A stretch of 64,000 nt of DNA from Rhizaria sp. SCN 62-66 (Eukaryota), in NCBI GenBank assembly GCA_001724265.1, contig MEDY01000081.1, positions 1 through 64,000 of the forward strand. Direction: 5' to 3'. Made by a program: the position numbers and the translations under genes. The notes under the pieces were generated by a model. The model did not search any database, was not told where the DNA came from, and saw nothing but the letters and a program-made list of their open reading frames with translations. Position 1 is the stretch's first letter, and each line of letters opens with the position of its first letter. Below, piece after piece: positions 4,411-64,000 of this stretch.

Positions 4411-4414
4411 TTGC

Positions 4415-21890: not shown

Positions 21891-24800
21891 ATGATGCAAG
21901 GCATCATTCCCGTACGTGCACCAACTTCACTCAAGCATATCTGCATCATTCAACGTCTCATCGCAACATCCCACTACCAATGTTGTTTAAATATATCTTT
22001 TCTACTGTTTGGCTTACTTATTTTTCTTTGATACCTCGTTTGTGTTCTGTGTCCATCCTTCGCCCGCAAACAGCCGGCGGACGGCGGCGCCCGCCGGCCC
22101 CGCAAGCCCTTGCGCGCCCCCGCGTGGCACCTGCCGCCCTACGTGACCTACGGCGAACAGCTGCTCTCCGAGCTCCAGCTCGACGCGCTGGTGTACCTTT
22201 CGGACGTGGAGCTACTTGCCGTGCTGCGCAAGGTGTCCCTCTGGGCCTGGGACGTCGAGGACCCCAATGAGACCCTCCGTCCCGTTGTCACGCGGCTGCA
22301 CGCGCGCCTGAAGCAGTACGCTGTCGACAACGACCTGCTCGTCGACTGCCAGGCTGCTGTCCCCGCACCGATGACTGTTGTGGCGGCCGACGCGCTGCTG
22401 GGCGGCGACGAGGCAGGTGCGATCAGCGGCGCCAACCCCAGCCCCCCCGGTGACGCTGACTACAGCAGTAGCAGCTCCACAGCCGCTGCCGCTGTCGCTG
22501 CAGTCAGCGACGCGAGCGTGCGTCCGCGCGTGCTCTATGACCGCCCGCTTTCGCGCGCGGAGGAGCTGGAGCTCGTGCTCTCGATCCTGCGCTTCCTAGA
22601 CCTGTACGCCGAGTACTGCGAGTTCTGCAAAAAGGAGACCGACTACCACGCCATCACACTCCACCCGGGTACGCCCGCCGCCGCCGCCGCAGCGGCCGCA
22701 GCGGCCGCGAGCGCAACGGGCGGCACGGGCGGCCATGCCAGCGGCACGCTCGCGGCGGCCGCGGCCTCGGCGGCGGCGGTCGCGGCGCGAGTCGCGTCCG
22801 CGTCGGCCGGCTACGCGTCGCACAACGAGCAGGCGTCGCTGCTGCCGTTCGACAACGACGGCGACTTCGACAGCGACGATGATTATGACAGCGCTACTGG
22901 CAGTCGCCGTCGCCGTGGTGACGTCGACGACGACAGTGAGTTCTTCGACCTCAACAACAGCAACAATAGCATGCACGGTAACAACAACGCTGACGCCGAC
23001 GACAGCGACGGCGAGAGCACGGCCGAGCAGCGTCTGCGCCGCGCGCTTAGCAGCACGCGCGCGGCCCGCTTCCGCCGCTACCAGGCCGCCCGCGCCGCGC
23101 GCGGCAGCCGCCTCAGCGCAGGGCCCCGCGGTGCCGGCTCAGACGGGAGCCGGAGCACGCGGCCCGTGGTCGCGGGCGGCGCGGCGATGATGCCGCGCGC
23201 CGTGCAGAGCGGGCTGAGTCTGTACGCGGCGCTGCTCGCCGCGGACGACTTGGAGGTGGTGATCGCGACGATGAACAGCATCAACGAGGTGATAATCTCG
23301 ACCACTTGCGCCGCGGTGGACCGCCACACGGTGCTATACCACAAACTCCAGGGTTTCGCGCCCACCGTCCTCGCGCTGCACGCGCAGGGCCAGGCCGCCG
23401 CCGCCGCCGCCACAAGTCAGACCCAAGGGGCCGCGGACTCGATGTTCAGCTTCACCCCCGCCGACGCCAGCAGCAGCAACAGCAGCAGCGCGAGCGCCAA
23501 CGCCATCAGCTGCGAGCTCGCGCCTGCATGTGCGCCGCTGCTCGTGCCGACCGCCGAGGAGCTTGACGAGCACGTGAGCTTGCGGCTTACCTTTGAGTTC
23601 AACCCGGCGACCGACGTCAGCCCGTACCTGCCGCCCGTAGGCTCGGCTCCCTACGCCCTGAGCCCCGCCAGCGATACAAGCGGCTGTGGTTACTTCCGCA
23701 GCAGCGGTTGCCTGATGACCCAGCGCGCGCGCGAGAGCGCTAGCCTCAGCTGCAGCAGCGGCGCCGGCGACGCTTCGGGGGGCGTACTCGCTGAGAGCGC
23801 GCTGCTGCGGCCCCCCGCGGGCGCCGTGGTGGGCACGCACGTCTGCGCGGCCACAGGCGCTGCCGTCGCCGTCACGCTCGCGGAGTGTGTTTCTAGCCGC
23901 GATCGCGAGACGGAGACTGACAGCTCTGGTTCGAACTTGAGCTCTGCTCCCGCGAGTGATTTTGAGTCGGCTGGTGAGGCTTGGGGTTCCCACAATATGT
24001 TTCCGCCGAACCTTTTTTCGGAACTGGCCGCGCCGCACTCGCTGCCCACGGTCTCCTTCGGCACCGTGTGGGGTGCGGTGACGCACGTGCTGGCCAACGA
24101 GGCGTACATTCCTGCCGCTCTCGATCTGCCCACGGTCACCAGCAGCAGCAGCAGCAGCAGCAGCAGTCAGAACATGGGGGACGGTGAGGCGCAGCAACAA
24201 CTGTACTCGTGTCTGCGCCCCTCCTGCCCCGCGTCGGCTTCTGCCTCAGTCTCCGCATCTGGCTCTACTTCTAGCTCCAATTCCAGCTCTAGTTCCAGCT
24301 GCAGTCACCTCGCCTCAGCTGGCGAGTACTGCGGTTGCCACCTGCCTGTCCGCCGGCCCAACATGGACACGGAAGTGCCGCAAATCGCGCAGTTCCGCGC
24401 CTTCTCCCTTGCCCGCCAACGCCAGATGCAGCGCTACGGCGCCAACATGCCCGCCGTGGCCCCCGCGCTGCGCAGTGCACAGTGGCGACACTGCCACCCG
24501 CCGCGGGATCTACGTACCCCCTTAGACGGCGCGGGCGAGCAAGGGTGGGCGTACTCGGCGACTCTCCCCGCGGCGATGACCATTGTCGGCAGCCACGGCA
24601 GCATTGCCCCTGGGCTTGGTCTTGGCTACACTCAGCCGAGCAATAGCAAGACGAATGCCATGTACAGTAGCTCCGGCTCCAGCTCCAGGTCAAGCGCAAG
24701 TGCGAGTATGAGTGCTCCCAGTGCTAGTGGGTACTGCCATGTCGACGGCGACCCCCTCGCCCGCTGGGAAGCCTCCGCCGCCCGTGTCCCGCTCTCTAGT

Positions 24801-27800
24801 AACAACAACAGCCCTGCCAACAGCAGTCCCCACGGCGAGGCCTCGATCGTGAGCGGCCTCGTGACCGGCGCCGAGCCCGCGGCCGCGGCCGCGACAGTGG
24901 GCGCGGTGCCGTACCCGTACTGCCCGCCCGCCGCCGACGGCGGCTGCGAACTGCCTTGGTCCCACTGGCGGCTCGACCTGCCGTGGCAGTCGATGGTCGT
25001 GCCCGTCGCCGGCACCGCCTGCGCGTGCGCGCACTGCCTCGCGACCGAGAAGCCCCTCACGCCCGAGCACCCTTACATCGCGTCTAAGTGCCCCGCGGAT
25101 GGCGACGCGTGCGCGCAGAGCGGGAACACGCAGCACATCCACTACCGCCCGCTGACAACTGCGTACCTCGCGGCCCGCGTGTGCGTGTTGCTCTCGCTGC
25201 CCCGCGCGTACGTGTCGCAGCTGGCGCTCTTCATCCGCCACGGCTTCCGCCTTTGGTCGCAGGCGGCGCGCGTCGAGGCGCTGCAGGCCACGCTGCGCTC
25301 TGTGCTGTTGTTGTCCTTTACGGCCACGGCGCGCGAGCGCCTGCTGACTTTCTGCGCGCGCTCGCCGGGCGTCTCGCTGCCCAAGGCCGCAGTGCTGCTG
25401 CTGCAGGCGTGCGCAGCGTCGCCCGCGCTCACGCCCTACAACGACCAGGGCGACGCGCTCGTCGCCGCCATGCGTGCCGGCGGCGGCGCATACCCTTCCA
25501 AGGCCAAGGCGGCCGCGGCTGCGGACGCCAGGGCCAAGGCGGAAAGCAAGAACGGCGCCGCGAGCAAGAGCAAGAGCTCCGGCCCCGCTGGCTCAGCGGC
25601 GAGTGAGGCCGGTGCGCCGGTGCCGATGCCGCCGCCGTACGTGCCGCTTGCGGTCGTTCTACTCGCGGTGCCTGTGGTCGAGGTGCTGACCGACTCGAAG
25701 CGCGCGCTGGCGGAGTTTAAGTCGCTGGGGCTGTACCACAACGGCCTCATCCACACCATTTTGCGCGACGCCGTGACCGGGCTGCTGCGGCTGTCTCAGG
25801 ACACGCCCGCCGCGCCCCTCGCCCTCACTGATCTCGCTGCCACCGCCTCCGACTCTGAAAGCAACGCTGCTAGTAGTGAGCTCCTGAGTGAGAATGAGCG
25901 TCTAATTAAGCGGCGGCAGCAGCAGCGCCACAACCAGAACCTCACCGTGGCCGCTGAGTGCACCGCTCTTGGCGACGGCTACAGTGTGTTTACACCGAGT
26001 CTCCTCGACATGCTGCCGGCATCGTACGCCAATGACGCGCACACCGGTATGAAGCGTCTCAATGCCGACGCGTTGTGTCAGTACGATGCGGACACTAGTC
26101 TGTTGTACCCTAAAACAAACAACAGCAGCACCGCTAGCACTTCCACTGAGAGCGTTGTCATCGAGATCGACACCGACAACAGCACGAGCGGCTCCGCCAG
26201 CAGTGGCGGCGCGTCTGCTACCAACTTTACGGTCCCCGCGCACTACCTGACCGCGCCGCCGCCGCTGCCGTGCTTTGTGCCCAGCGACGCGCTGCCGCGC
26301 GGCTGCACGGGCTACGTGCTCAACGACCTCTCTTTCTCGCCCGCGCGCGTCACGCCCACGGCCGCGGCCACGGCGTTCCCCGCGTCGCCCGCCGCGCTCG
26401 CCGCCGCGGCCGCCGCGCTGCCCTTCCCCGTCGCCGCGTCGGGCGCCGTCGCCGCCGTCAACAGCAACAGCGCGTTGTTCCCCTACCTGGCTACGGTGCC
26501 GGTGCCCCACCGCTGCGCCGCGCAGCCTGGCGTGTTCGGCCCCACAGCCACCGCGTCCTCGCCTTTCCTCCCGCGCCCCCTGCCCGCACACATCGGCGCC
26601 CACTTCCCCGCGACAGCGAACGCCTCTGCGGCGGCCAGCGGGTCCGCGGCGGCCGAGCTGCCGCCCGCGCTGGTGCTCGCGTCCTGCTGGCCCGCTGCGC
26701 CCGTGCATACGCAGTGCAGCGCCGAGATGGAGCAGAGCGTGCTCGTGACCTCGCTGCTGTGTCTGCTGCAGCGCTCGCTGCCGCACCTGCACGCCTACGC
26801 CGTGGACACGGTCAGCGAGCTCTTGCGCATCGTCGGCAAGGTCGACGCGACAGCTGCGGACGACGCTAACGGCGCGGGCAACAGCGCCATTGCCGGCGCC
26901 GGATCCAGCAGCAACAACGCCGCAGTGACGGCTGCTGCCATCGGTCGCAATGCGACGAGCAACAGCAGCAACAACCGCGCCAACGTCGAAGTCACGGCCG
27001 AGCGCGTGTCGATCCGGTCCGTCTCGGTGGTGATCAAGGCCTCGCAGCTGCTGCAGGACGCGATCCACGAGTCGCGGAGCGCGATGAAGGCCTTTACGCA
27101 GCAGGGCGGGCTCGAGGTCGCCATCCTCAAGCTTGCGCAGACCATGCGGCTCAAGCCCCCGTCCGCCGCGCTCGTAGCCGCGGCCGCCGCGGCGGGCCAG
27201 CGTGTGCCCGCGCTGGTGTTCTCGGGCGAGAGCGACGCGGACCGCCCCGGCTGCTTCGTCAACACGACGTACAACATGCTGCTGGCGTCGTTGCCGCCGC
27301 TGGGCGTCGCCGCGCCGCGGTTCCACGAGCGCAACGTGATGGCGACGCGCGTGGCCGCGGCCCACTACGCACAGTACACGCGCCAGGCCCGCCAGCACTA
27401 CGGCGATACCGCTAGCACTGGCTCTGCTGTGGGTGAGAGCTCTGAGGCCGAGACTGTGACGATGAACGCGCTGAGCGCTCTGGCTGCTGATATCGCTCCT
27501 CGCAGCACGGCCGCGATGAACGCCAGCAGCAGTAATGTCGCTGGCTCTGCGATGCTCAGTCCGATGAGTTGCACTGTTAGCATGCCTGCGAGTGTGAACG
27601 TAAGCACCAACGCCACGCCGGCGCTCACTCCCTCCGTCTCCGCCGCCATTCTTGCCAGCGACGACGCTACAAGCAACAACGCGACCGAGTCGAGCTCGCC
27701 CTGCTCTCCTGCCGGTGCGAGTGCAAGTGCCAGCAGTCTGTTCGTGCTGCCAAAGTCGCGCGCCGGTGGCAGCTCGCCGCACGGCACGCTCGTTGTCTCC

Positions 27801-39800: not shown

Positions 39801-42800
39801 ACCGCGGGCGCCAGCGCTAAGTCCTCCGCCGTTGTGCACGACGACGATAGCGACGACAGTGACAATGATGACGGCCTCAGCGAGGGCGAGACTGCGAGCG
39901 ACAAGATGCTTGCTCCGGGCACGGTGCTGCCGCGTGACGATGTAGTGTGGCTCTTCAAGTCGATGTTCGAGTCTGACGAGAGCGCATTCCCTCTGCCTCG
40001 CGCTACCACCGACGACACGAACGCCAACGACGCCAACATTGCGACCAACGCGCTCAATAAGCGCAACGTCGTCGGCGTTGACGCCGACTCGGGCGCCGTT
40101 GTTCTCGGCGACCGTGACCGCGGCGGCCGCTACCTCAACATCTTCGGGCCCCGCCCCTGCGGCGTCGCTCTCGGCACGCTGCGCGAGGCCTGCGAGTACT
40201 GTCAGGCGCACTTCCCTGTTCCCAGCTCCAGTGCAACGAGCGTGAGCGTCAGCCCGGTCAGTGGCTCAACTGCCGAGTCCCTGATCGATCCCAGCCCGGC
40301 CCCGTCCCGCATTCTGTCTCACGCACTGCGTTGCCAGATGCTGTCGCCGCATACAGCCCCGATCCACACGCTAGCGGCGCACAAGGGCACGCAGCAGTCG
40401 GTGTGGACCGCGCCGCTGCACGGCAGCTACGTTATGCACACGCTGTTGCAGCACGCCGTCACGCAGCTCGGCTACACCAAGCACGTCGGCTCGCTCCATA
40501 CCCGCGCCGCGCAGGCCGAGCTAGAGGAGACTACCGCGCTCGCCACCGCGGCCGCGCGCGCCGCCGTCGCGGGCGCAGTGTCCCCGCAGCAGCAGGCCCA
40601 GCTCGAGCGCGACCGCCGCCGCCGCCGCGGACTCGGCCTCGCGCGTCTTAACTTGTCGCCGCAGGACGCGTTGCTGACGGCCGCGCTGCCCGCGCCGCCG
40701 CTCGTGGCTGGCGGAGTGACGCTGCAAATCATCGCGGCGATCCTGCCGTGCTACCCCGCGTTCGCGGTGCAGGTGCTCAAGTTCAGTCCCGCGACTGTCA
40801 CCGTGCCCGTCACGGCGGCGCAGATTGAGCGCACTCTGACTGCCAACATCAAGAGTGGCATCGCTGCTCCGACCGTCTCCGCGAATGGGATTGCGAGCGC
40901 GAGCAGTATTGCGATGGGCGCTTCGCTGTCGTTCCGCCCCGCGCCAGCGTTCCCTGACACCGTCTCTTTCCTGCTCCACTCGCTACTGAACGACGTGCAC
41001 GGCCAACACCCCGACACGAGCACCGCGGCGACGCGCCTGTTGACGCAGCTCACCATGGTCGGCGGGCCCTCGGTGCCGCCCTTCCTGCTCCGCACGCTGC
41101 CGCCCACGCTGAGCCAGATCTCCGCGGGCGACCGCGACGTCGACGGCGAGGGTAAGTGGAACAAGGACAGCGGTCACGAGCGCCGCGGCGTGAGTCCCAA
41201 CAGCAAGAAGGGCAAGGGCAGCGGTAGAGGCAGTAAACACAGCAAGAGTGCTGCTACCTCCGAGGCCGCTGCTGCGAGCTCGACTCCTGCTCCTGCGCAG
41301 CCGCAGCCGCAGCCTGCTGGCTATGCCTCATGGCACCTTGTGTCGCCGAGCGCGCCCGCTCCCTCTTCGAGCAACAGTAGCAGCAACACGAACGCGAGTA
41401 GCTCCAGCAGCTCTAGCTCGGCATCGAGTGCGACCACTGCTGCGGGTACGACCCTGACTTCTCCCATCAAGTCAGCGCTCAAGAGCGCGAGCTCCAGCTC
41501 CAGCGCGACCAAGAAGTCTGTCCGCATCAGTGACAGCACTGAGACCAACACGAACTCTAGCTCAAGCTCGAGCTCGAGTGGCTCGAAGAGGCGCGGCAGC
41601 AAGCGCCGTCTGCGCCAGTTCCTGGCTCGGCCCATGGAGCACCTGCCGGGCCCCACCCGCCAGCACAGCCACATCCAGCCCGTGGGCCTGGGCGCGTTCC
41701 TCTCGCAGTGGGCGATGGCTGTCGTCAGCATCTGCACGCAGGGCTGGACTGCCACGATGCAGCCCGAGGCCGCACCCGTCGTCGACTGCTACTGCTCGTG
41801 CGCCGCGGACAGCGCTAACAGCGCCGCCCCTGTTGGCGCGGGTGGCATCAGTGCGCCGCTCGTTGCCGCTGCCACGGTTGCCTACGGCGCTGGCGCCGAG
41901 CACGCGCGCCGTCCGTTCCCGCTGCCGACGTGTCTGTTGCCGCCACACGAGCAGGCCGCCGCAGCGGCCGCTGCTGCTGCCGCCGCGGGCGCTGGTGCTG
42001 CTGCAGCCGCCCGCGCTGCGCGCCGTGCTCTGCGCCACGCCACCGCGACGGCGGGCAATCTGTCCCCGTCGTTCTCCCCTTCGTTCTCTCCGGCGTTCTC
42101 GCCCGCGTCTCCCTCGATGTCCGCCACAAATCCAAGCGCCGGCCCCGCGACTGCGAATGCGAACGTTGCAGGTGTGAGTGCACTCGGTATGACCGCCCCG
42201 GCGGCGCCCGTGTGCACCTGCTGCGGTCTCCGCGCTGCTCCCCCGGCCTCGGCCGCGCACGCCCACTCGATCCTCGGTCTCTACCCACACCACTGGCGCG
42301 TGCCGCTGACCGCGCGCGAGCTCGACGGCGCGCTGCACGCCATTGCGCTGCAGTCTCCGTTCCACCGCGTCGCCTCGGCCCCGCTCGCCGGGTCGCTCCT
42401 AGCCCGCGCGCGCGCCCAGGCCTCCGCGGTCGGCGCCGGCGCGCAGAAGACGCGTCTAGCGGTCGGCGGAATGTCGCTGTATAACAACCCCGCGCATGCC
42501 GTTTCACTGACGAGCACGGTCACCAACAATGTAAACGCAAGCGCGGCGACTGCCAGCGGCAGCGGTGCGAGTGCGACGAACATGAACACGTGCATCGGCA
42601 GCAGTTTCGCTGCTCGCGGCAATGCGAACAACAGTAGCAATAACGCTGCGGCTCAGACGACGACGGCCACGGTGGTGAACGCTGAGGCAGAGGCCGATTT
42701 GGCCCTCCAGAGCGCCATGATCTCGTGCTCTCTCGCTCTGCCAGGTCTACGCTACCTCCTGATCATTCTCGCGCAGCTTTGGCGCCAGACCCGTGGCCGC

Positions 42801-45800: not shown

Positions 45801-48800
45801 TCCTCCCACGCGCGCCGCCGCAACCGGAACCGGCGCGTGTCCGAGGCCGACGCGTTCCTCGACTCGATCCTCGAAGGCAGCGGGGCCGCGCCCGCCCGCG
45901 GCAGCCACGGACACGGACACCACCAGCCGCGCGGCAGCGACGACGACGACATGGTCGGCGACGACGGCGACGGCGACGACGACGGCCACGGCGGTGCTGT
46001 GGCCGCTGGCGCCGGCGGCGACCCGGCGGCCGCTGCGGCCGCTGCGGCGGCGCTGAGCGGCGCCGGCGGACGCGCACGCGGTGCCGGCATGATGGGTGCC
46101 GGCGCCAACGACAGCGACCCTCTCGGCCTCCGCGCAACGACCCGCCGGCGCACGTACAACGACGACTTTTTCGGTACGAGTGACGAAGAGGAGGAAGATG
46201 AGGAGGACGAGGACGAGGAAGAGGACGAAGAAGAGGAGGATGACGACGAAGAGGAGGAAGAGGAGGACGCTGAGGGCGAAGAGGAGGAGGAAGAAGAAGA
46301 AGAGGAGGACGAAGAGTCTGTCGTCCTCCGTCGCGGCCGCGGTGGCGCTGCCGCTGCTGGTGCCAACAACCGGCGCCGGCGTCGTCGCCTCATGTCTGGC
46401 GGCGCTGCCCACGGTCACCACGGAGCCCCGGGCGCTGCCACTGTGGCGGCCACTGCCCCGGGTGGCCTCTTCGGCCTCCCCAGCAACCCTAACAGTCCGC
46501 AGCTCGGCGCGCGCCGCACGGCGTACGACCTCGACGACGACAACGAGGACGACGACGATGACGACGATGACGACGACGACGACGACGAGGAGGACGACGA
46601 CGACGACGAAAACGCGCTCTTTGGCGCCGGTTCTGGTTCTGACTCTGACGGCGACGCTGGCGCCCACGGTGCCCGCCGCGGCCGCAACGCCATTAACGGC
46701 GGCGTCATCGATCTTACGAACTCCGGACTCGACCTCGCGAGTCTCTTCGGTGGCCTTGGCGCTGGCGGCAACCGCGCCGGCCGCCGTCAGGGCAACCACG
46801 ACGACAGCGACGACGAAGAAGGCGGTCTCGAGGAGCCTGCGGACAACAATGCCAACGCCAACAACCTCAGTCTTGCCAACTTGCTTCCTCCTCAGCTGCG
46901 CGGTGGTCACGGCCACGGCCACGGCCATGGCCGCTCTCGCAGTGGTCGCGTCTCGCCTCTAGCCATGCTGCCCACAGGCGCGCTGCCGCCCGGCATCAAC
47001 CCCGCCCACGGCGCCGCCGGCCGCGCAATCTACGTGCCTGTACCGGGCGTCGGCGGCCGCGCGCCGCTGTCGGCCACGGTGCAGCCCGCGACGCGGGCCT
47101 CCGACGGGCGTGGCGGCTACACCGTCTCCATCTCGGTCCCGCACTCGCACGCCATGAACGCCGGCTCGCTCGCGTCGGTGCTGCAGTCAGTCTTCTCCTC
47201 GATCAACGCGTCCGCTCTGGCCCCGGGCGGCGCGAACAGCGCCGCCGGTGCTGCGAACATGAGGCAGCAGCGGCCGTCGCCTGCGATCACCACTGCAAGC
47301 GGCACCAACGCTGCAGCAAGCGCGAGCAACAACGGCGCGACGCCCGGCAGTTCGAACACGGCCGCAGCCGCGGACGCGCCAGAGCCTGAGGCCGAGGCTG
47401 AGGCCGCAGCCGCCGCACTCGTCGGCCGCCGCCGCCGCTCCTCCGGCGCCAGCGCCAATGCCAATGCCAACGCTCTCGCCAGCAACGAGCTGTCGCAGAT
47501 GTTCCTCGCCCGCCACGGTTTCCTGCCTCCCGGCGCCATCGCTGGCGGCGGCGCCGCAAGCAGCGGCACCGGACTGCCGTCCATCGCCTCGCCCGACCGC
47601 CGCCGCCGCCCCGGCGCTGGCGGTGAGGACGACGACGACTACGACGACTACGAAGAGGACGACGATGACGACGGTGACGACGACGACGCCTTGGTGTTTG
47701 ACAGCCAAGGAGCGCTCTCGCACTCGAGCGCCAACTCTCTCGCGCGCCGTCTTAACGGCGCCAACCGCAGTGGCCGCAGTGGCCGCGGCACCAGCCACAC
47801 GCCCGGCGGTTCCAGCAGTCGCCGGCGCGGCCAGCCGCCCGCGGCCGCCGACGCCGCTGCCGCCGCCGCCGACGCGCAGGCCGAGTTCCCCCACCACACG
47901 ATGCTTGATGACGACGGCGACGACGGCGTAGGCTTTGCCCGTAGCCGCCTCCACGGCCTGATGAGCCGGCTCCGCGGCTCCGCCGGCGACTCTGGTGAAT
48001 CCGGCGACAGCGTCAGCAGCCGGCGTGTGTCTGGTCCGTTCTCGGTCTACACGCCGACGCGCGCACGCGCTCCCGGCAGCGCGCGTGGCGGCCCCGGAGA
48101 CGGCGACGGCGGCAGCGATGGCAGCAACAGCGCCGCCGACGACGGCGACGATGAGGACTTGACGTCCGACTCCGACGCTGATGCCAACGCGGCCGCCGAG
48201 GCTGAGGCTGGCCGCGAGTGGGGCCGAATCCTCGCTGGCGCAGCCGCGGCCACAGCGCCTCCGGGCTCTATGGGCCCGCGCCTCTCTCTGCCCGGCATGG
48301 CGAGTACCAGTGCCCGTGCTGGCGCTGGCAGCGTGCTGACGCGGAGGGACCTTCGGGCTTTGCGCACAGTCGCCGAAGGGCTCCGCAGCATTTTGGCGCA
48401 AGCGCAAGAGTCGACGCCCTATTCCCGCCGCATCAATGAATCTGAAGGAGATGGCCGTGGTGATGCTGCTGCTGCGCTCGCGGCTGCTGTCGCCGCCGGT
48501 CGCGCTGCCGCCCGCCGCCGCAACCGCCACGTGCGTCGCGAGCGTGCGCGCACGCGCTCTCTGCTCACAGTCACGCCCTCGCGCGCTCGCGCAGCTGCGG
48601 CTGCGGCTCGTGGCCGCCTCGACCCTACGGAGTCTGACCTCGAGGCCGCCGAGACCGGGCTCGCTCTCGCGCATGAACGGCGCGCATCTGACGCCAACGC
48701 CAACGTCAACGCCGACGCCAACACGGATCTGAGCAATAGCGCTGGTGCGAGTGGTAGCGCGAGTGCTTCTGCAACTGCTGGCTCTGGTGTCTCGATGTGG

Positions 48801-54800: not shown

Positions 54801-57800
54801 ACGCACAGCAACTGCCCGTGTGGCGGCGCTGCGTTTGAGCGCTACGCTCGCACGCACGCCGTCGCGGTGCCGGACCGCTCTTTTGTGGCCCGTTTCCCGC
54901 ACGCCGCCACGTTCGCCGCGGCCGCGCGTCAGGACGCGGTGCAGAGCGCGCGCACCCGCTCGCTTCCATCGCTGCCGCCGCGCAACCTCTTTTCTCCGCC
55001 GCTCCCGTTCTGCACCGAAGCGCCGATCTCGAGCACCTCTGCGATGCTCTACAGTACCGACGACACCTCCCCGCTCGTCGACGACTGCTCGCTGCCGACG
55101 TTCCGCCTCTACAGCTACCTCACGCACGGCGTCGGCGACGGCATCAACGGCTCGCCCGTCTTCGCCACGGCCGCGGACCAGCGCAATCCGGCCGTGATGA
55201 ACGCGTTGGCCCGCATCGCCATGCCGCGCGAGAGCGCCGTCGTTTGGGGCGCCGGGCTGCGCTACTTCACCGAGCTGGAGACGTCGCTGGAGCCGTTCCT
55301 GCCCTTCATGGCCGGCGTCGACGCGCCGCCACCCGAGCGGCCCACGCTGGCGCAGTCCGAGTCGCACGCCGCGCGCCTCACCGCGCTGTTCCAGCCGGGC
55401 GCGCGCAGTGGCGACGTGTTCACGCTCGTCACTGCGGGCCCGCTCAACCGCAACGTCGCGCGCGGACTCGCCGACATGACGGCCGTGGTGCCCATCGCGC
55501 GCGAGCACACAGGGACCGTGGGGTTTCTGCCCCTGCGGATGGCGCGCGCATACGCTGCCGCCGCCGCCGGTGCCGGCTCGGTCTTCTCCTCCGCCGCCGC
55601 GGCCGCCACGGCGCGCCTGCTGCCGCCTGTGCTCAACTCGGCTGCTGACGCCGGCACGGAGACGCTGCGCATCGTTGCCACGTCGCTGCCCGCCGCCTCC
55701 GCGGGGCAACTGCAGGGCGCGGCCGCGCTGCGCCGCGTCGCCGACCCTTGGATGCGTGCGCACGATAGCGACTGGGGCCGCGCGATCGAGGATGCGGAGG
55801 CTGCTGAGGCGTTCTTCGCCGCCACCGCCGGCGCCGTCAGCGCGAGCAGCAGCCCCAGCTTTGGCGCCACTGCCACGCGCAGTCGCAGTGGCAGCGGGGC
55901 CACGCTTTCCCCGCCGATCGCGCCGCTCTCCGGACTGGCCGCGACTGCCGGCGGGCTCAACATGGGCGGCTTCGTGCTCACCGACGCCAACGGCGGCACG
56001 TCCCCGCTCATGTCCAGCGCGAGCAGCAGCGCCGGCGCCGGTGCCAGTGGCGCGGTCGGCGGGCTCTCCGCGTCGCCGTCGCTGGCGCAGCGCCGCCTGT
56101 TGTCGCTGACGCCCTCGCCCTCCGGCGCGACGCGACTCCTCGCGCAGTCGGCGCGCCAGATGGTCGTCTCCGCGGCCGACGCCGCCGGGAGCCGCAACGC
56201 GAGCCCGCTGATGCAGAACAACACGCTGCTGATGCGCACGCCGCTAGGCACCATCCAGGCCGTCTCGCTCCCGGCCCCGGGCAACAACGCGGGCGCGGGC
56301 GACGACGCCAGCGCCGGCAGCACGAGCACCGGCGGCAGCAGCGGGCACGCCGTGTCGCCGACGCTGGCCGGCACGAGCATGGGCGCCGGCGTCAGCGTCG
56401 GAGTCCCCGGCCCGCGCGGCGGCGTCATCTCGCTGTCGCCGATGGCCGGCTCGCAGCAGGGCACCGCGCCCTGGGCGCCGTTCGCGTTCGCCTTCCCCAG
56501 ACTGCCGCAGACGTCGCTGCAGTCCCAGGCCTCGGGCTCGGGCTCGGGCTCGCAGTCGTCGCAGTCGTCCCAGTTGTCGCAATCGCAAACTTCTCAGTCT
56601 CAGAGTCAGAGTCAGAGCCAGAGCCAGCAGGGCCAAGTGTCGTTGACCCACGTCACGAGCAGTGCCAGTAGCAGCCCTTCTGCTGCCAACAACAACCCCA
56701 ACGCTGCGACCGCCAGCACTGGCTCGATCGTTCTGGCTCCGCGCACCGCGAGCAGCCGCAGCGGCGGCCTGCTGCGGGACGTCATGTCGCGCCTCCGCGC
56801 CAGTCAAGCAGACATCGCCAACAACACCAACGTCAGTAACACAATCGCCGCCAGTAACACAATCGCCAGTCGCAGTGGCGCTGCCGGCTCTGGCGTTCTC
56901 ATCAGTGACAGCGACGAGGAAGAGGAGCCCGACGTCATGCTGCCTCTGCCCACGACCGCTAACTCGGGTGCACGCAACAGCAACGCTTCTGCCGGCAGTG
57001 GCCGCGGCCGCTTCCGCTCTGGCCTCGGCACTGCCCCTGGCTCTGCTCTCGCCGCCGCGGTCGCTGCCCTCACCGGCTCCGGCTCGACCGCCGGCTCCGC
57101 GGGCGCGAACTCCGGCGCGAGCGGTCGCGTGGGTGCGCAGCAGGCTCTGCCGTCGCTGTCTTTAAGCGACCTGTTCCCCCGTGCCTTTGTCAGCTCACTT
57201 CCCTCCGCATCCGCTGCATCTGCCTCCGCTGGCTCGGCAAGCTCCAGCTCTAGCTCTAACGCGGCTGCCAGCAGCAACAGCAGCAGCAGGCGTGGTGCCC
57301 GTCCCATGACCGACTCCAGCTCTGCTGACCGCAACGCAGCGGTGGACGGCGACCTGTACGACTACGACGAGGCCCACGGCGGCGGCGAGTTGTTCGGCGA
57401 AGACGAGGAGGGCGACTACGAGGGCGACTGGGGCGACGAGGGCGACGAAGGCGACTGGCTCCGCGAACTGCTCGCCGACGCCGCTGAGGGCGACGAGGGC
57501 GACTTCGACGAAGACGAGGATGAGGACGGCGAGATTGAGGAGGAAGAGGAAGAGGAGACGGATGGTGGCCGCCGCAGTCGCGGCTCCGGCTCAGCCTCGG
57601 CCTCTGGCTCTGCCTCTAGCTCTCGCTCGAGCTCGAGCTCGAGCTCTCGCGTACGCCACGCTGACGCGAGCAGCAGTCGCCACCGTCATCGCAGCAGTTC
57701 TAGCCGCAGTGGCAGCGGCAGCAGCAGTAGAGCTCCCCGCACTCCTGCGAGCAGCCGCCGCGGCCGTGGCCATGGCCACAACCACGGCCGCAGCCGCCGC

Positions 57801-60800
57801 CTGTCCACTGACTCGTTCGGCCCGGCCTTCGCCGACGACAGCGTCGACTCCGCGGGTCTCTCCGTGCTGCCGCTGAGCGTGCAGCGCGAGATCTTCGGCC
57901 TCTCGCCCTCGGCGCTCGCGCACAGCAGCGGCGGGCTCACCCCGCTGCCCTCCACCGCGGGCGCGGGCCCGCTCGCACTCACAGGCACGAGCAGCTCTGG
58001 CAGCTCGCGCAGCAGCACGCCTGCGACTTCGCTGTCGTCGCTGCTCGCCTCGCTGGGCGCCGCGTCCTCGCCCTCGGCCGCCGCCGCTGCCGGCACTGCC
58101 GCCAACAGCGAGGCGGCGACGCCGGCGATCCCCTCTGACCCGCTCTCCCTGCGCACCGACCTGACCTCACTCGTGCTGGCCATGCCGCCCGCGCAGCGCG
58201 TGGCCTTCCTGACTGCGCAGCCCGAGTCGGTGGTGGTGACGCTTCCGCCCGCGCTCATGGCCGAGGCCATCGTGCTGCGCTACGGCCCCCGCGCCGCGCG
58301 CCGCCGCGTCGCCAACGCGCCGTCCTTCAGCTCCATCTTTGACGCTGTTCCTGGCGACCCGCTCTCCATGAGCAGCGGCAGCCGTTCTACTAGCTCTAGC
58401 TCGAGCGCGAGCGCGGGTAACGTTGCCGGCGTGCCGTCGCTGCTGCCGATGAGTCCCAACAGCGGCAACAGCACGAGCACGACCAACACGCCCGGCGCCG
58501 CGACGCCCGGCAGCGTCGCCAGCTCAGGTCCGGGCCTGTCCCGCGCCTCCACCGGCTCCGGCGCCAACGCCGCGAACCCGCTTAGAGCGGGCGCGCGCGC
58601 CGGCCCCCGCCCCGCGCGGTCCGCGTTGTCGGGCATCATGTCGCGCCTCGGTTCCCTCACGCGCCGCCTCGTGCGCGCGCGCGAGGCCGAGGCAGCGGTC
58701 GCGCGCGGCGGGCTCATGTCCGCCGCGGCCTCCGCCTCCGCCGCCGCCGCTTCCGCCGCGGGCGGCGCCGGCGCGGGCGCGCGCTCGGGCCCCGGTCTGT
58801 TACACCCGCTGTATCTTGCGGCGCTGCTCCGCGCCGTGGGCTGCCGCAAGGTCGACTTCTCGACGCTCGCGCGCGTGGTCCGCCTGGCGTGCGCGTACGA
58901 GCCCGTGCGCGTGGCGCTGCTTGAGGCCGTGCGCGCGCTCGCCGACAGCGCAGTCCCCGCCGCGCTCGTCGCTGAGGTCGAGGCCGCGGCCATCACCACG
59001 ACCGTGGCCTCACTGCCCGCCGCCATGGCCACGGCGGCCGCGCCGCGCAAGCTGCTGTCGGCGCTGCTGTGCACAACGGCGATCCTCAGCCACCTCGTGC
59101 CCGGCGGCGCCACGGCCGGGCTCGCGCTCGGCGCGGACATCGGCGCCGGCTCCCACCCCGGCACCAGCGCGGCCTCCGCGGCCGTGAGCGGCAGCGCGGT
59201 GCCCGTGACGGTGAGCGTGCACCTGCCCGAGCTCGAGTCGGACCCGATCGCGCACTCGGTGGACCAGGCCGCGCACGTGTACCTCGACGCGCGCAGCACC
59301 TACGTCTACACCATGGGGCTGCCCGTTGCGCGCGGCGTGTCGGGCGGCGGCATGGCGACGCTCTCGCACTACGGTGTGTCGTACGTGCACTCGGTGCCCG
59401 CGATGCCGCTCTACCGCGTCCTCGCGCCCGGCGCCAAGGCGGGCAAGAAGCTTCGCCGCCGCGGCACTGTACGCGGCGCCGCTGTGTTCGCGCATGAGGA
59501 CACCGTGCCGCGCGTGGCCTCGCGCTTCGAGCGTCTGGCGCACTACACGCCCTACGTCGTGGCCAGGGCCACGCTCGCCAACGGTGTCGCGCCCGCGTCG
59601 CTGTACTTGGCCGAGATGAGGGCTGCCGTCGCAAACAGCAGCAACAACAGCGCGAACATTGCTGCCGCACAACAACAGTCGCAGAGTGCTTTCACTAAGC
59701 CTGCGGCTGCTTCTGCGACTAGCTCGACTGTGGCTGTTGTCCCCGCGGTTCCCGCGACTCTGGCGCACTCCCGCGGCGAGCGCGGCCCCATCGCGGTCAC
59801 CGCTGACCGCACCGTGGCCGCCGCGCTGCTGCTTGTGGACCGTCTCATTCAGGACTGCAAGCACCGCTTCTCGCCCTTCTTCATTGTGCCGCAGCCCGTG
59901 CCCGTGGTGCACCACGTCCCCGTCCCCATCTACAGCAACAGCAACGCGACCGCTGGCTCCGGCGCTGCGTCCAACAGCGGCGGTGTCGGCTGGTTTGTGT
60001 CGTCGTCGCACGTGGTGTGGCGCTCCCCGATTGTCTCCATCCTTGCACTCTGCACCTCCCCGGCCTTCCACAACGCGCTGGGCATCGAGGTCATCGGCCG
60101 CGTGGCGCAGACGATGCTGGTCGACTACGCGCAGTCGTGCCCCACGCCGCACTCGCGCAGGCACCTTGCGCAGATCGCGCTGCTGCAGCAGCTCGCCGCC
60201 GCTGACTCCGCCACCGCCACCGCCACCGCGAGTGACACTGCGAGTGCGGGTGCGAACGCTGGCGGTGACGCTACCGCCGGCATAGTTGGCTTCAACAGCT
60301 CGGAGCCGCTGCCGCCGCCCACGGTCGCGATTCCGACTCTGCCGACCGCGGTGATGACGCGCCTGGTGCAGGCGCTGCGCCACCCGGGCTGCCCGCCGCG
60401 CGCGGCCGCCGCTCTGGAGGAGCTCGTGTCGCTGCTGGCCTTCACGCCCTCGGCCAGCGTCGCGTTCATGCACAAGGTCATGGCGGCGGCTGCCACGGCG
60501 ACGGCCAACGCCGCCGCTGCGGCCGCCGCAGCTGCTGTGGCCCCGGCTGCTCCTGCCACTATGGGTGGCAAGGCGATGAGTGACAGCGACGCAAGCACCG
60601 TTGTTGTTCCTTCTAGAGCGACTATTGAGCTCATTGACGACTCTAACACAAGCGCAAGCAGTAGCGCAACCACTGCCACTGCAAGTGCTGCGTCTACCAG
60701 CACTAGCAGTAGCTCAATCGCGCCGATCGTGCCCCCGTCTGTGTTCAGCAACGTGTGGCAGTCGCTGTCACTGCAGTCGCTGTGCATCCCCGCGCCGCCG

Positions 60801-62453
60801 CTGCTGCGCCACTGCCCGCCCAACTCGCCCGCGCTGCTCGCCGTGGCCGCGGTCAACACCAACGGCGTCACTACGGGCGCCGCGGGCGCGGGCGGCGACA
60901 ACCGCACGTCGCTGCTGCGCGCCGCGGCGGGCGAGGTGTGCATGCTGAGCCGCATCATCGGCGTCGCGCTCGCCATCAACCTGCTCGACCTGGGTGTCAT
61001 GACCACGACGGCTACGAGCGGCGCCGGGCTTGCCGGTGGGCACGGCCTGCTGGTCCCGGCCTCACTCTCCGGCTCCGGGAGCAGCGGCAGTGGCAGCGGC
61101 AGCGGCAGCGATGCGGGGCTGGGCCTCGGCCTCGGTCTGGGCCTCATGTCCACGCTCGCCAGCCTCCTCAGCGCGTCCAGCGTCGGCACCAACAGCAACG
61201 CCAACAGCGGGCTGCTAGTGCCCGCGCCGCTGTCCGGTTCGGCCTCCTCGGCCCAGGCCGCCGTCGCGGCGGGCAGCGGGCTCCTGCTGCCAACGCCCAT
61301 GCCGTTGCGCAGCACCAGCCTCGCGCGCGCCATGTCCGCGCTCGCGCACGCGCACAGCCACGCTGCCGCGCAGAACCACGGCCACGGCCTCAGCCTCGGC
61401 GGCCCCGGCCAGTCCGCGGCCGCCGCGGTCGCTGTCGCCGCGGCGGCCTCCGCGTCGGGCGCGGCGGGCAGCGCGGCCGCGCTGGTGGAGCTGGGCGTGC
61501 CGCTGTCGGTCGTCACGGCCGCCAACACGGGCCTGCTGCAGCTGCGCGCGAACCAGCTCTCGCTACTGCGCCTCGTCACCTTCCTCCGCGGCGTCGGCGT
61601 CATCGGCATTGCCATCGCGCCCGCGCACGGCAGCGCTAGCAACAACGGCAGCGTGACCGTGAACAGCGTCCGCGGCAGTGTGGACCAAGGACTGGGCTCG
61701 CCTCAGCTAGCACTCGCCTCCGCGTCTGTGTCCGCCTCCAACTCCCCGTCGCTGGCGCTGGCGCTCACCGTGCCCCTGTCCTTCCCCTCGAGCAACGCCA
61801 GCAACGCCGCTGGCAGCACTGCCCAGGCCTTCGCCAGCCCGCCCGGGTCCGGGGTGCTCACCTCGGCCGCGGGCGCGCTCACGCTGACCTACGCCGAGCT
61901 GCTCCAGCGCGACCAGCTGCTGCTGCGCACGCTGGGGCTCTCGCGCTCGCTCGACTCGCTCTTCGCGACGCTGGACCTCTACCTCGCCGCGCTGCAGCCC
62001 GCCGTGGCGGCCGTGCTGCGCGAGGGCAAGAGCAGGGCCATCAAGGCCAAGGCCGCCGCGGAGGCCGCCGCCGCTGCCGCCGCCGCGGCTGCTGAAGCCG
62101 CCGCGAATGCTGCAACCGCGATGACCGACGGCGACACGGACGCCGTTGCGGCCGCGCCCGTCGCCGGCGCCCCCAGTGCCGGCGACAGCGGCGCGTCTGC
62201 GGGCGGCGTCGGCGCGATCGCGGGGATGTCCATCGCCGTCATCGAAGAGGGCGACGAGGAGGAGGAAGAGGAGGAAGAGGAGGAGGACCGCGTGGTGCTC
62301 GGCGGTAACGGCAGAGACGGCGCCCGCGCCGGCCTGCCCGCCTTCGCCGGCGCGACCGCGTCCGCGTCATCGTCATCCTCGCTTGCTCACCCGCTGTCCT
62401 CAACGTCCTACCACACACCCGCCTCGCGCCGCTCGCGCTCCGCACTCAACCGC

Positions 62454-62486
<33 letters not shown>

Positions 62487-64000
62487 GCCGCCCACGGCAG
62501 CGGCGTGCCTGGCTCCGCGAGCAGCCGCGTCGCTGCCGTTGCGACCGGCGCCGGCGCCAACGCTAGCGGGGCTGGTGGCAACACCAGCAGCGGTGGCGCG
62601 GGCGGCAACAACAGGCTGCAGCCGCCCTCGACGTCTCTCTCTCGCCACGGCAGCGCCAGCGCGAGCACCAACGCCAACGCCGCTGCGGGCGCCAACGCTG
62701 CCGCCTCCGCCCCCGTCTCGGGCCCCGCCGCCGCGGCCGCCGCCGCCGCGGCCGCGACCGCCGCTGCGGCCGGCGCGAGAGAGAAGGACAGCAAGAGCAA
62801 GGCCGCGCCTGGCGAGTCGATGTGGGCGCACCTGCTGCACCTGCCTCTGCTCGAGTGCTACTTTTTGCTCCACGCGCCGGCGCTGCCCCCGCCCAGCCCG
62901 CCCGCGGCACTGTCCTCGGTCTCGCGCGCGTCCATCCTCGCCGCGATGAACACCGGCAGCAACAACACCGCCAACAAGACCAGCTCCGCGAGCGCCAGCG
63001 CCGCCTCCTCTGGTTCGAGCTCGCTCGACGGCAACGACGCCAACGCGGGCGCGACCGCGAGCAACAGCTTCTCGCTGTTCGTGGACCGCCACCAGCGCGT
63101 GCTGTCGATGCTGTGCCGCAAAGTGCCGCGTCTGCTGGCCCCGCCCTCGGGCGCGTGGATCGCGGGCGTGTCTTCCGCGCCCAGCGGCGCGCACGGCCAC
63201 GGCCACCACCACGACGCGGGCGCCGCCGTCGCCTTCTCGCTCGCCGCGCCCGCGGCCCGCGCGAGCCTGGGCGCCGCGTCGAGTAGCACGGCCGCCGCCG
63301 CCGCCGCGGCCAGCAGCAACAGCAGCTCGGCCGATGGCTCCTTCAACCCGCTGCTGTGGCATCACAACAAGCAGGTGCTGGACTTCGACGTCCGCTTGCG
63401 GTACTTCCAGCAGTGCCTGCGCGCGGCGCACGCGCAGCGGCCGCGCGAGAAGCTGCAGCTGCACCTGCGCCGCGACCTGCTGTTCGAGGACGCGTGCCAG
63501 CAGGTGCTGCGGTACTCGCCCGCGGAGCTGCGGCGCCCGCTCGAGATCAAGTTTGTGGGCGAAGACGGCGTTGACGCGGGCGGGCTTACCAAGGAGTTCT
63601 TCGTTGTGCTGTCGCGCACGATGTTCAACCCCGACTACGGGCTGTTCGAGCCGACGACAGGGAACCCGAACGTGTTCGCGCCCAGCCCCAAGTCGCGGTG
63701 GAACCCGCAGCACCTGACGCTGCTGCGCTTCGTCGGCCGCCTCGTCGGCAAGGCGCTGTTCGAGGGCGAGCGCATCGAGTGCTACTTCACGCGCTCGCTG
63801 TACAAGCACCTCACGGGCGCCGAGATCACGCTGAGCGACCTGGAGGCCATCGACGCCGAGTACCACAAGTCGCTGGTTTGGATGCTGCGGAACCCCGTCG
63901 AGGGCGTGTTCGACCACCTGACGTTCGAGGCCGAGGTGGGCGACTTCGGTGCCACCTCCTCCATCGGACTGCTGCCCGGCGGCGCGGGCGCGGACGTGGG
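21891..64000 (+). CDS. HUWE1: Giant HUWE1/Tom1/UPL1-family HECT E3 ubiquitin ligase, 3'-partial (exon 1 21891-21911 MMQGIIP; exon 2 22074->64000), >=13,980 aa
   Basis: The frame with codon starts at positions divisible by 3 is open from 22074 to the end. The track lists no closed ORF in this frame, and the TAG trinucleotides I checked are all out of frame. It contains an N-terminal DUF908-like start (LRKVSLWAWDVED, LSILRFLDLYAE, LLAADDLEVV), a central acidic region, UBM-like motifs and a C-terminal HECT domain. Confidence 0.9.
21912..22073 (+). other. Spliceosomal intron (162 nt, phase 0) in the HECT ligase gene
   Basis: CCC|GTACGT ... pyrimidine tract ... AAACAG|CCG; AT-rich. Confidence 0.8.
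43880..48200 (+). repeat. Asp/Glu/Gly/Ser/Arg-rich low-complexity region (~1,400 aa) of the HECT ligase
   Basis: (GAC/GAG)n runs such as 43975-44035, 46180-46315 and 46530-46612; RERERE near 44950. The position matches the central acidic disordered region of HUWE1/Tom1. Confidence 0.85.
57840..58280 (+). other. Ubiquitin-binding (UBM/DUF4414-like) motifs in the HECT ligase
   Basis: VDSAGLSVLPLSVQREIF and DLTSLVLAMPPAQRVAFLTAQPESVVVTLPPALMAEAIVLR resemble the D..FL.ALP..IR.E and LP..L.AEA..LR motifs of Tom1/HUWE1. Confidence 0.65.
63375..64000 (+). other. HECT domain, N-lobe (truncated by the window end)
   Basis: VLDFDVRLRYF, LHLRRDLLFEDA, LEIKFVGEDGVDAGGLTKEFF, MFNPDYGLF, LRFVGRLVGKALFE, YFTRSLYKHLTG, DLEAIDAEYHKSLVWML. 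Confidence 0.97.

Follow-up and report, generated by a model that had tools for sequence, protein, structure and literature searches.

Does an open reading frame of almost 42 kb belong to one gene, and is that gene a member of the HUWE1/Tom1 family of HECT ubiquitin ligases? The question is raised by positions 21891 to 64000 of the window (the first 64,000 nucleotides of contig MEDY01000081.1, the whole stretch analysed here), which from the letters alone had been predicted to encode such a ligase almost entirely in one exon. HUWE1/Tom1 ligases are conserved quality-control enzymes whose ring-shaped solenoid scaffold probably determines the choice of substrates; known members range from 2,490 amino acids (Nematocida) through 3,268 (yeast) and 4,374 (humans) to 8,591 (Plasmodium). 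We propose, with a probability of roughly three in four, that the frame is a real single gene and comes from a GC-rich, as yet unsampled microbial eukaryote, in which an orthologue of HUWE1/Tom1/UPL1 has grown to 13,982 residues or more. The core of the original prediction, a single coding frame that runs for 41.9 kb or more, lacks an intron of the local type and encodes a HUWE1-type ligase, was supported in each part tested.

The open frame and its 5′ end

In a script scan the forward frame was free of stop codons from 22032 to 63998 (13,989 codons), which confirms the 13,975 codons predicted when counting from 22074 to the window end; an in-frame TGA (22029-22031) lies just upstream, and the window sequence contains no N. 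An ORF list with open ends permitted gives a single ORF (22110..63998, + strand, 13,963 amino acids, 3′-open). Base composition predicts one stop per 54 codons, and the probability of 13,963 codons without a stop is about 4e-112. GC at codon positions 1, 2 and 3 is 0.66, 0.60 and 0.83, and the codon usage (RSCU) of the giant frame correlates with that of three neighbouring genes at 0.88-0.97 in 13 of 13 3-kb segments, as compared to 0.37-0.68 for the other two frames. Since 42 kb have been kept without stops or frameshifts, selection must have acted across the whole frame.

The earliest in-frame ATG after the stop at 22029 is at 22371, not at 22074, while 22074-22370, upstream of it, is clearly coding (GC3 0.89). 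An upstream mini-exon is therefore needed. The gene would thus consist of a 21-nt exon 1, one 162-nt intron and an exon 2 of at least 41,927 nt:

21891..21911, + strand: proposed exon 1, ATG plus six codons (MMQGIIP), ending in phase 0, as read from the sequence
21912..22073, + strand: proposed intron, 162 nt, GC 0.407, GTACGT...AAACAG
22074..64000, + strand: exon 2, 13,975 codons, 41,927 nt inside the window and open at the window end

This layout (ATG at 21891, 7-codon exon, 162-nt GTACGT...CAG intron) had already been put forward and fits the local intron pattern. The neighbouring Iso_dh and kinase genes contain three introns, verified by Pfam continuity, of 151-186 nt and GC 0.37-0.42; with all three the proposed intron shares the GTACG 5′ site, phase 0, length class and GC. 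It has stops in two of the three frames, the gene's own frame included.

Counting the proposed one, the four introns recognized in the window are of this kind, and there is none of that kind within the giant ORF. GC of 120-nt segments of the ORF has a minimum of 0.50, as compared to 0.37-0.42 in the three verified neighbouring introns, so that the predicted lack of an AT-rich intron-like island holds. From the three introns per about 10.9 kb of coding sequence in the neighbouring genes about 11.5 are expected in 41.9 kb (rough Poisson probability of finding none, 1e-5).

One can accept the coding frame and still suppose that internal promoters or polyadenylation sites make it give rise to several products, or that GC-rich, stop-free in-frame introns are removed from it, leaving a much smaller mature ligase. 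Codon-position GC is indeed flat in three stretches of the ORF (36132-36942, 39282-39792 and 48162-48792). These encode, however, a Lys/Ser/Ala/Asp low-complexity peptide, and the codon-usage correlation of their 3-kb segments is 0.92-0.96. We return to this alternative with the RNA-library matches.

The HECT end and the family blocks

The HUWE1/Tom1-type HECT domain claimed for the end of the frame was found. Pfam HECT matches at 63609-63995 (E 1e-20 to 5e-22, best 4.9e-22; model positions 3-133 of 306 only), and phmmer against the PDB ranks HUWE1 (1.5e-52) before TOM1 (7e-48) and RSP5 (1.8e-42), the alignment opening about 50 residues ahead of HECT proper, at HUWE1 residue 3970. The last 230 residues in the window match HUWE1 and Tom1 best, human HUWE1 (4,374 aa) and yeast Tom1 (3,268 aa) being the best PDB matches of the N-lobe together with the preceding helix; a family profile gives 290 bits on the HECT region. 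Among the best 41 database relatives of this region, UBM is present in 33 and DUF908 in 26; identity to the best 34 is 38-50%. A HECT domain whose nearest relatives are HUWE1 and Tom1 is what characterizes ligases of the HUWE1/Tom1/UPL1 type. The HECT domain seen is part of the N-lobe only, since the window stops before the C-lobe, the catalytic cysteine and the stop codon; as an orthologue of the HUWE1/Tom1/UPL1 HECT ligases the enzyme would be catalytically competent.

For the region upstream, block profiles were built from 27 full-length HUWE1-type relatives (3,627-4,962 aa) and scored against 41 shuffled or reversed control sequences. With residues counted from the codon at 22074, the features are:

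26772..27173, + strand: DUF913-like (ARLD2) block, residues 1567-1700; block profile 10.1 bits, E 1.4e-5
40686..41015, + strand: conserved middle block, residues 6205-6314; 8.5 bits, E 1.1e-4
43902..47714, + strand: cluster of four acidic (D/E) tracts, residues 7277-8547
57393..57605, + strand: second acidic tract just ahead of the UBM-like motifs, residues 11774-11844
57846..58286, + strand: UBM-like motifs, residues 11925-11945, plus two in 12010-12071
61944..62297, + strand: pre-HECT block 1 (marginal), residues 13291-13408; 6.8 bits
62793..63137, + strand: pre-HECT helical block 2, residues 13574-13688; 28.4 bits, E 1.1e-10
63318..63998, + strand: HECT N-lobe with N-terminal extension, truncated where the window ends (Pfam model position 133 of 306)

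The scores of the five profile blocks were reached by none of the 41 controls, whose maxima were 2.5 bits for the DUF913-like block, 3.1 for the middle block (corresponding to residues 2257-2310 of fish HUWE1, P0009), 1.5 for the UBM-like block at 12010-12071 (15.0 bits, E 1e-6), 5.6 for pre-HECT block 1 and 3.4 for pre-HECT block 2, the helical region before HECT. All six detected blocks (the five profile blocks and HECT) keep the family order. Pfam places DUF913 at the same position as the block profile (E 0.0028, 17.1 bits versus a cutoff of 24.7; model positions 215-374 of 382 only). UBM (DUF4414) motifs follow the acidic region by block profile, and they also align to the family consensus, although the Pfam UBM model reports no match in the giant protein. 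Profile matches over the four-tract acidic cluster are compositional (2 of 41 controls give the same), as is in part a wider UBM-region match at 11494-12115 (reached by 3 of 41).

Of the domain order predicted, HECT, the acidic tracts and the UBM-like motifs were recovered in sequence; the DUF908-like ARM start was not. Pfam gives no DUF908 match at E<=10 anywhere in the giant protein, and the best score of the DUF908 block profile is −3.4 bits, which 19 of 41 controls equal or better. With hhalign, residues 11-194 fall best on family positions 18-133, the correct end (P 0.033, probability 1.5%). The protein is so divergent that failure to detect DUF908 need not mean its absence. No match to UBA, UBA_7 or WWE was seen when the protein was cut into 27 overlapping 1000-aa pieces (E<=1), or in 26 islands (E<=10), which argues against the animal subfamily only, given that WWE is described as animal-specific (PMC3673628).

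Could HUWE1 descent be confined to the C-terminal approximately 2,000 residues with the acidic tract, UBM, pre-HECT and HECT, the first approximately 11,000 being an unrelated, lineage-specific addition or fusion on which the DUF913-like and middle blocks match by chance? The N-terminal matches are weak (10.1 and 8.5 bits), Pfam DUF913 stays below its cutoff and DUF908 is undetected. HMMER found no true relative of residues 935-2098 among 1.84 billion representative proteins (the lone match is a repeat protein), and a PDB search was without a match for residues 13-1812 (counted from 22110), 3419-4593 and 5493-6363. Chance, on the other hand, is hard to reconcile with two N-terminal matches that beat 41 of 41 controls and stand in the correct order, with DUF913 placed there independently by Pfam, and with the hhalign placement at the correct end. 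The Plasmodium ligase PfHEUL (see below) has, by its description, an equal pattern of lost similarity. Look-alikes of residues 1-1773 in a language-model search, leads only, are ARM/HEAT-type scaffolds and include two DUF908/DUF913 clusters (0.88-0.89). We consider a fusion quite improbable and regard the whole protein as an inflated HUWE1/Tom1/UPL1 orthologue.

Size, repeats and RNA-library matches

Inside the window the protein comes to 13,982 residues (1.42 MDa), a lower limit; it would have about 14,150 if HECT ends it, as in its relatives. It is 3.2 to 4.3 times longer than HUWE1 and Tom1. Low complexity makes up 45% of the sequence versus 7-39% in the 27 relatives, and residues of ordinary composition number 7,736 versus 2,438-4,068, approximately twofold. 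From the match positions, the gaps between conserved blocks are 2.2 to 6.1 times as wide as in a fish HUWE1. The inserts are Ala/Ser-rich and of low complexity, and to these come approximately 4,000 extra residues of ordinary composition without detectable relatives.

As predicted, the protein is not built from tandem domain repeats, on which three methods agree: self-BLASTP with SEG gave no off-diagonal match at E<=1e-3, TRF found only GAG/CGA codon runs (46182-46609, within the acidic cluster), and a repeat search of the DNA found only codon-repeat families (60-80% alike) and no long high-identity repeats. Titin and the Prymnesium PKZILLA polyketide synthases, which also exceed 1 MDa, are built from many repeated modules; the giant ligase is of the same size class and, unlike these, without internal repeats.

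The giant protein was absent from a 5.8-billion-cluster database at lengths of 30 to 17,499 aa, and a scan of a metagenome collection turned up neither a second copy of the contig nor a close relative. Because the gene was not found in the protein databases searched, surveys of family size undercount such genes.

Exact matches to scattered parts of the giant ORF occur among the RNA-library contigs of two studies. Among the matches listed, 7 of 8 in X1 (a polyA metatranscriptome; 313-466 nt, between 22653 and 39302) and 5 of 8 in X2 (from the second study; 144-247 nt) are without a difference; contigs of X3 (kind unspecified) cover 30 of 30 bins, the 8 matches listed (512-1632 nt) having at most one difference each. 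Only X2 is independent, because the window itself may come from study P1. DNA can be present in RNA libraries, and exact matches prove neither a single transcript nor translation, both of which we infer from the sequence.

The longest span of the ORF in one contig is about 0.5 kb (X1) and 1.6 kb (X3), a fragmentary coverage that speaks for the alternative of several products or in-frame introns. None of the 15 joints listed is GT..AG, however; all have sides of 20-23 nt on low-complexity sequence. Nothing in the ORF resembles the local introns, and the colinearity of the blocks, which extends from residue 1567 to the end, is what one protein predicts. Several products or GC-rich introns are therefore unlikely, and a single continuous product is preferred.

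A more radical objection is that no 14,000-aa protein is made, the frame being an assembly artefact (joined or expanded low complexity) or a decaying gene. The source is environmental and metagenome-derived, low complexity at the codon level is abundant, no close relative or second contig copy turned up in the metagenome collection, and the long-range assembly extends beyond any contig span (at most 1.6 kb within the ORF). In one X1 contig (depth 5.2) single bases are even missing at 33120 and 33122, which gives a net shift of −2; X3 is identical to the window there. A chimera or pseudogene would not hold 13,989 codons open, though, and there are no long high-identity repeats to mislead an assembler; the complete X3 coverage with at most one difference per listed match and the ordered family blocks also speak for a genuine gene. 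We judge artefact or decay to be very improbable and retain the single inflated orthologue.

Function and relation to known ligases

If the enzyme works like others of its family, E2~ubiquitin would dock on the HECT N-lobe, and ubiquitin would then move to the catalytic cysteine of the C-lobe (beyond the window) and on to substrate lysines. A long α-helical N-terminal scaffold would hold the substrates, while acidic tracts and UBM motifs in flexible insertions may bind basic clients and ubiquitin. The conserved blocks would have been pushed apart by the low-complexity inserts plus the approximately 4,000 extra ordinary residues; this extra sequence may fold as a solenoid, and the enzyme may serve in quality control.

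More tentatively, at somewhat less than even odds, the whole frame is translated (about 14,150 aa, 1.4 MDa) into a HECT ligase larger than any known and a protein that ranks among the largest non-repetitive ones known from eukaryotes, the extra residues are added helical scaffold that enlarges the HUWE1-type substrate ring or adds to it, the single 42-kb exon is kept by strong selection against introns, and the lineage has no sequenced close relative. A threefold larger natural version extends the size range known for HUWE1/Tom1 ligases and would test inflation of the scaffold by insertions while HECT, pre-HECT and UBM elements remain conserved. A 42-kb intron-free exon beside intron-bearing neighbours bears on intron loss and 5′ intron bias, and also on the limits to transcribing and translating one mRNA.

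With HUWE1 and Tom1 the giant protein shares the order DUF913-like block, middle block, acidic tract, UBM motifs, pre-HECT and HECT; it differs from them in that DUF908, UBA and WWE are undetected. The cryo-EM structure of HUWE1 is described as modelling only 55% of the protein, a large share of unstructured insertions being normal for the family (PMC13196369).

The predicted more than threefold excess in length holds against the 3,300-4,400 aa of the yeast, plant and human proteins, but left out the HUWE1/TOM1/UPL1 orthologue of Plasmodium falciparum, PfHEUL (PF3D7_0826100), with 8,591 aa and approximately 1 MDa (PMC12007708), over which the excess is about 1.6-fold. According to the published description, with which alone our protein was compared, the HECT domain of PfHEUL is approximately 50% identical to that of HUWE1 and active in vitro, and upstream of HECT its similarity to HUWE1 is confined to DUF908 (PMC12007708). 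Both are oversized HUWE1-type ligases; ours is GC-rich and Ala/Ser-rich rather than AT-rich, and has detectable UBM-like and DUF913-like regions with DUF908 undetected, whereas PfHEUL as described has DUF908. PfHEUL provides a precedent for inflation within the family, of which the giant gene would be an extreme case.

The architecture DUF908-DUF913-(UBA)-DUF4414/UBM-HECT is reported to be pan-eukaryotic, including plant UPL1/UPL2 and protists (HECT class VI, Grau-Bove et al. 2013; PMC3673628). Alveolate and heterokont families are described there as retaining only DUF4414-HECT (PMC3673628), and thus provide a precedent for the loss of detectable N-terminal domains. From plant UPL1/UPL2 and the protist HUWE1-like families the giant ligase differs in size, the 27 full-length relatives having 3,627-4,962 aa.

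An open frame of 42 kb

The window sequence contains no N. From behind a TGA at 22029-22031 an in-frame stop scan found one forward frame free of stops up to the window end (13,989 codons); the ORF listing, with open ends allowed, gives it as 22110..63998 (+), 13,963 aa, 3′-open. The original prediction counted 13,975 open codons from 22074, from which residues are numbered here, to the window end, and this count is borne out by the absence of any in-frame stop. With one stop per 54 codons predicted from base composition, a run of 13,963 codons without any has a probability of about 4e-112. The three codon positions have GC values of 0.66/0.60/0.83. RSCU of the giant frame, compared with three neighbours (the genes for FBPase, Arl1 and a TPR protein), correlates at 0.88-0.97 in all 13 successive 3-kb segments, versus 0.37-0.68 for the remaining two frames. 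It follows that the 42 kb are coding throughout, in a single frame. The many antisense ORFs of 300-900 aa within the giant gene, e.g. 25902-28481 (-) and 44199-46928 (-), are a by-product expected from GC3-rich codons and not genes. Some stretches, e.g. 36132-36942 and 39282-39792, have a flat codon-position GC; their peptide is Lys/Ser/Ala/Asp low-complexity sequence.

The earliest in-frame ATG of the giant frame is at 22371, yet 22074-22370 is coding-like (GC 0.71, GC3 0.89). This conflict would be resolved by the upstream-exon model of the original prediction, read from the sequence:

21891, +: putative exon 1, beginning with ATG, 7 codons
21912-22073, +: putative intron, GTACGT at 21912 to AAACAG ending at 22073, 162 nt, GC 0.41, in-frame stop inside
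22074 onward, +: proposed exon 2, phase 0

Pfam continuity across adjacent ORFs shows three introns in neighbouring genes:

1653-1838: intron of an isocitrate/isopropylmalate dehydrogenase gene
16728-16878: first intron of a protein-kinase gene
17269-17425: second intron of the protein-kinase gene

All three begin with GTACG, end with AG, lie in phase 0, and have 151-186 nt and a GC of 0.37-0.42; the proposed 5′ intron shares 5′ site and phase with each of them and falls into their class of length and GC. This tight local signature, shared by the four introns seen or proposed, could serve the annotation of this genome. The giant ORF contains no intron of this type, because its lowest GC over 120-nt windows is 0.50 versus 0.37-0.42 in the neighbouring introns, in line with the predicted lack of an AT-rich intron-like island. 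At the neighbours' density (3 introns per ~10.9 kb of coding sequence), 41.9 kb should contain about 11.5; the probability of none is 1e-5 in a rough Poisson estimate from this small sample. The exon is roughly twice the size of the largest human coding exons, with which the original prediction compared it.

Four sequencing runs from two studies, X1 to X4, contain 21500-31499, and the comparison with them was made over 21500-41499 (20 kb of the 42 kb). In the polyA metatranscriptome X1, seven of the eight listed pieces match exactly (313-466 nt, between 22653 and 39302); the eighth (351 nt, depth 5.2) lacks single bases at 33120 and 33122, a net shift of -2. At both positions X3, a run of unknown kind from the study of X1 and possibly the source of the window, has the window sequence, and the gaps in X1 may be a low-depth error or a strain difference. 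X3 covers 30 of 30 bins and provides the sole contig across the proposed 5′ intron, which is unspliced and probably DNA; the depth of X1 is zero over 21500-22166 (upstream spacer and intron), an uncovered part that is evidence neither way. X2, from the second study, has five exact matches among eight listed pieces (144-247 nt), and X4 consists of 25-35-nt fragments only. None of the 15 joints listed is of the GT..AG type and all have sides of 20-23 nt, for which reason they were treated as noise from low-complexity sequence; the full sets are larger by 72 joints and 1,565 pieces. The giant-ORF sequence thus occurs in RNA libraries of two studies, matches that establish neither a single transcript, nor the absence of rare splicing, nor translation.

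HECT region and upstream family blocks

Pfam HECT matches at the extreme window end with model positions 3-133 of 306 (E 1e-20 to 5e-22). In a search of the whole PDB, the final 230 residues rank human HUWE1 (E 1.5e-52) before yeast Tom1 (7e-48) and RSP5 (1.8e-42), and the HUWE1 alignment begins at HUWE1 residue 3970, upstream of the HECT domain. Among the best 41 relatives of the HECT region in a 5.8-billion-cluster protein database, 33 carry UBM (PF14377) and 26 DUF908; the best 34 of these 41 are 38-50% identical to it. By the PDB ranking and the presence of UBM and DUF908 in the relatives, the C-terminal module is of the HUWE1/Tom1/UPL1 type. The last 411 residues found five loci among metagenome contigs, just 40-47% identical, but no close relative and no copy of the window's own contig. 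In a shared-word search with 455 candidates scored, no relative of 5,499-17,499 aa had the HECT region at E<=1e-5; since the search works by shared words, this does not prove the absence of other giant HUWE1-type proteins.

Upstream of HECT, Pfam's own models are weak: DUF913 reached E 0.0028 and 17.1 bits (cutoff 24.7), and DUF908, UBM, UBA and WWE gave no match in 27 overlapping 1000-aa pieces (E<=1) or 26 islands (E<=10). Block profiles were therefore built from an alignment of 27 full-length HUWE1-type relatives (3,627-4,962 aa); 41 versions of the protein, 40 shuffled locally and one reversed, served as controls.

Family blocks of the giant protein (residues; score; control maximum; controls reproducing the match)
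1567-1700: DUF913 block; 10.1 bits; 2.5; 0/41
6205-6314: middle block; 8.5 bits; 3.1; 0/41
12010-12071: UBM block; 15.0 bits; 1.5; 0/41
13291-13408: pre-HECT 1 block, marginal; 6.8 bits; 5.6; 0/41
13574-13688: pre-HECT 2 block; 28.4 bits; 3.4; 0/41
13749-13972: HECT; 290 bits with the full-length profile; not reproduced; 0/41

All six detected blocks keep the family order. Of the domain order originally predicted, HECT and a UBM-like block stand; the DUF908-like start was not detected, its block profile scoring at best -3.4 bits, equalled by 19 of the 41 controls. With hhalign, residues 11-194 aligned to positions 18-133 of the family, at the expected end (P 0.033, probability just 1.5%), and five N-terminal islands and residues 1-560 as a whole gave probabilities of 0.3-5% against the family N-terminal alignment. 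Matches of the full-length family profile to the acidic zone were rejected as compositional, being reproduced by 2-3 of 41 controls.

In fish HUWE1 (P0009) the equivalents of the six blocks are at 716-873, 2257-2310, 3243-3303, 3727-3865, 4181-4304 and 4280-4502. Relative to this protein, the giant one is stretched ~2.2-fold before DUF913, 3.3-fold between DUF913 and the middle block, 6.1-fold between the middle block and UBM, and 2.9-fold between UBM and pre-HECT 1.

The extra length and the size of relatives

By SEG 6,239 of 13,975 residues (45%) are of low complexity, a share that ranges over 7-39% among the 27 relatives; outside low complexity the protein still has 7,736 residues, about twice the relatives' 2,438-4,068. 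Ala (18.6%) and Ser (12.8%) stand out in the overall composition. As predicted, the protein is not built from tandem domain repeats: self-BLASTP gave no off-diagonal match at E<=1e-3, TRF nothing beyond GAG/CGA codon runs, and the DNA repeat families (60-80% alike) are codon-level low complexity.

For the added sequence of ordinary composition no relatives could be detected. HMMER with residues 935-2098 against 1.84 billion representatives found no true relative; the sole match, P0042 (E 1e-5), is spurious, a 53-residue-repeat protein with one 40-residue stretch aligned. PDB searches by phmmer with 1,800 residues from 22110 and with residues 3419-4593 and 5493-6363 gave nothing or E ~0.2 to TOM22. 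Language-model look-alikes from a protein atlas are ARM/HEAT/TPR-type scaffolds (0.84-0.91, sub-threshold, with low recognition values) and serve as leads only. The AlphaFold2 model of residues 1183-1773, made without an alignment, is unusable (mean pLDDT 41, pTM 0.26).

HUWE1-family enzymes have 2,490 aa (Nematocida HUWE1N), 3,268 aa (Tom1) and 4,374 aa (HUWE1) on an armadillo-like solenoid scaffold, HUWE1 being resolved to only 55% (PMC13196369). The giant protein is more than three times as long as those of model organisms and ~1.6 times as long as the Plasmodium orthologue PfHEUL (8,591 aa), which also resembles HUWE1 only at its ends (PMC12007708). Alveolate and heterokont members are on record as having lost detectable N-terminal domains (PMC3673628). 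Given this size range and domain loss, the giant protein takes a known trend of the HUWE1 family to an extreme. In a literature search for HECT ligases above 1 MDa PfHEUL was the sole result, and nothing comparable to a 42-kb exon was found among reports on largest or single exons.

The open frame is confirmed and its HUWE1-type interpretation supported, with four reservations: DUF908 is putative, the catalytic cysteine and stop codon lie beyond the window, transcript and protein are predicted, and the long-range assembly is provisional. We put the probability of a single giant HUWE1-type gene at roughly three in four (0.77).

Neighbouring genes

4415-5536, -: FBPase gene, intronless
6483-7886, -: ORF of 467 aa, RSCU correlation 0.92, GC3 0.88, no Pfam family
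10428-11549, -: ORF of 373 aa, RSCU correlation 0.83, GC3 0.87, no Pfam family
16643-19834 region, +: protein-kinase gene of three exons, ending with TAG 18902-18904
18905-19834, +: ORF of 310 codons
20659-21021, -: UCR_14kD gene (ubiquinol-cytochrome c reductase 14-kDa subunit), Pfam E 3e-16

The closest relatives of the FBPase are environmental (75-80% identity); the named ones are Paulinella micropora (~64% at most, over 80% of the query), Lapot gusevi (61%) and crustaceans and molluscs (56-59%). The organism thus comes from an unsampled lineage, for which Rhizaria is a weak lead. A trypanosomatid origin is ruled out by the PDB comparison, in which the Leishmania enzyme scored below the mammalian ones. 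Codon usage in the ORFs at 6483-7886 and 10428-11549 is gene-like, and the forward ORFs overlapping them are shadows. The ORF at 18905-19834 directly follows the kinase TAG in the same frame, is moderately gene-like (RSCU correlation 0.71, GC3 0.67) and could reflect readthrough of the TAG, an error in a base, or coincidence. The UCR_14kD gene lies head-to-head with the giant gene, their starts ~0.9 kb apart.
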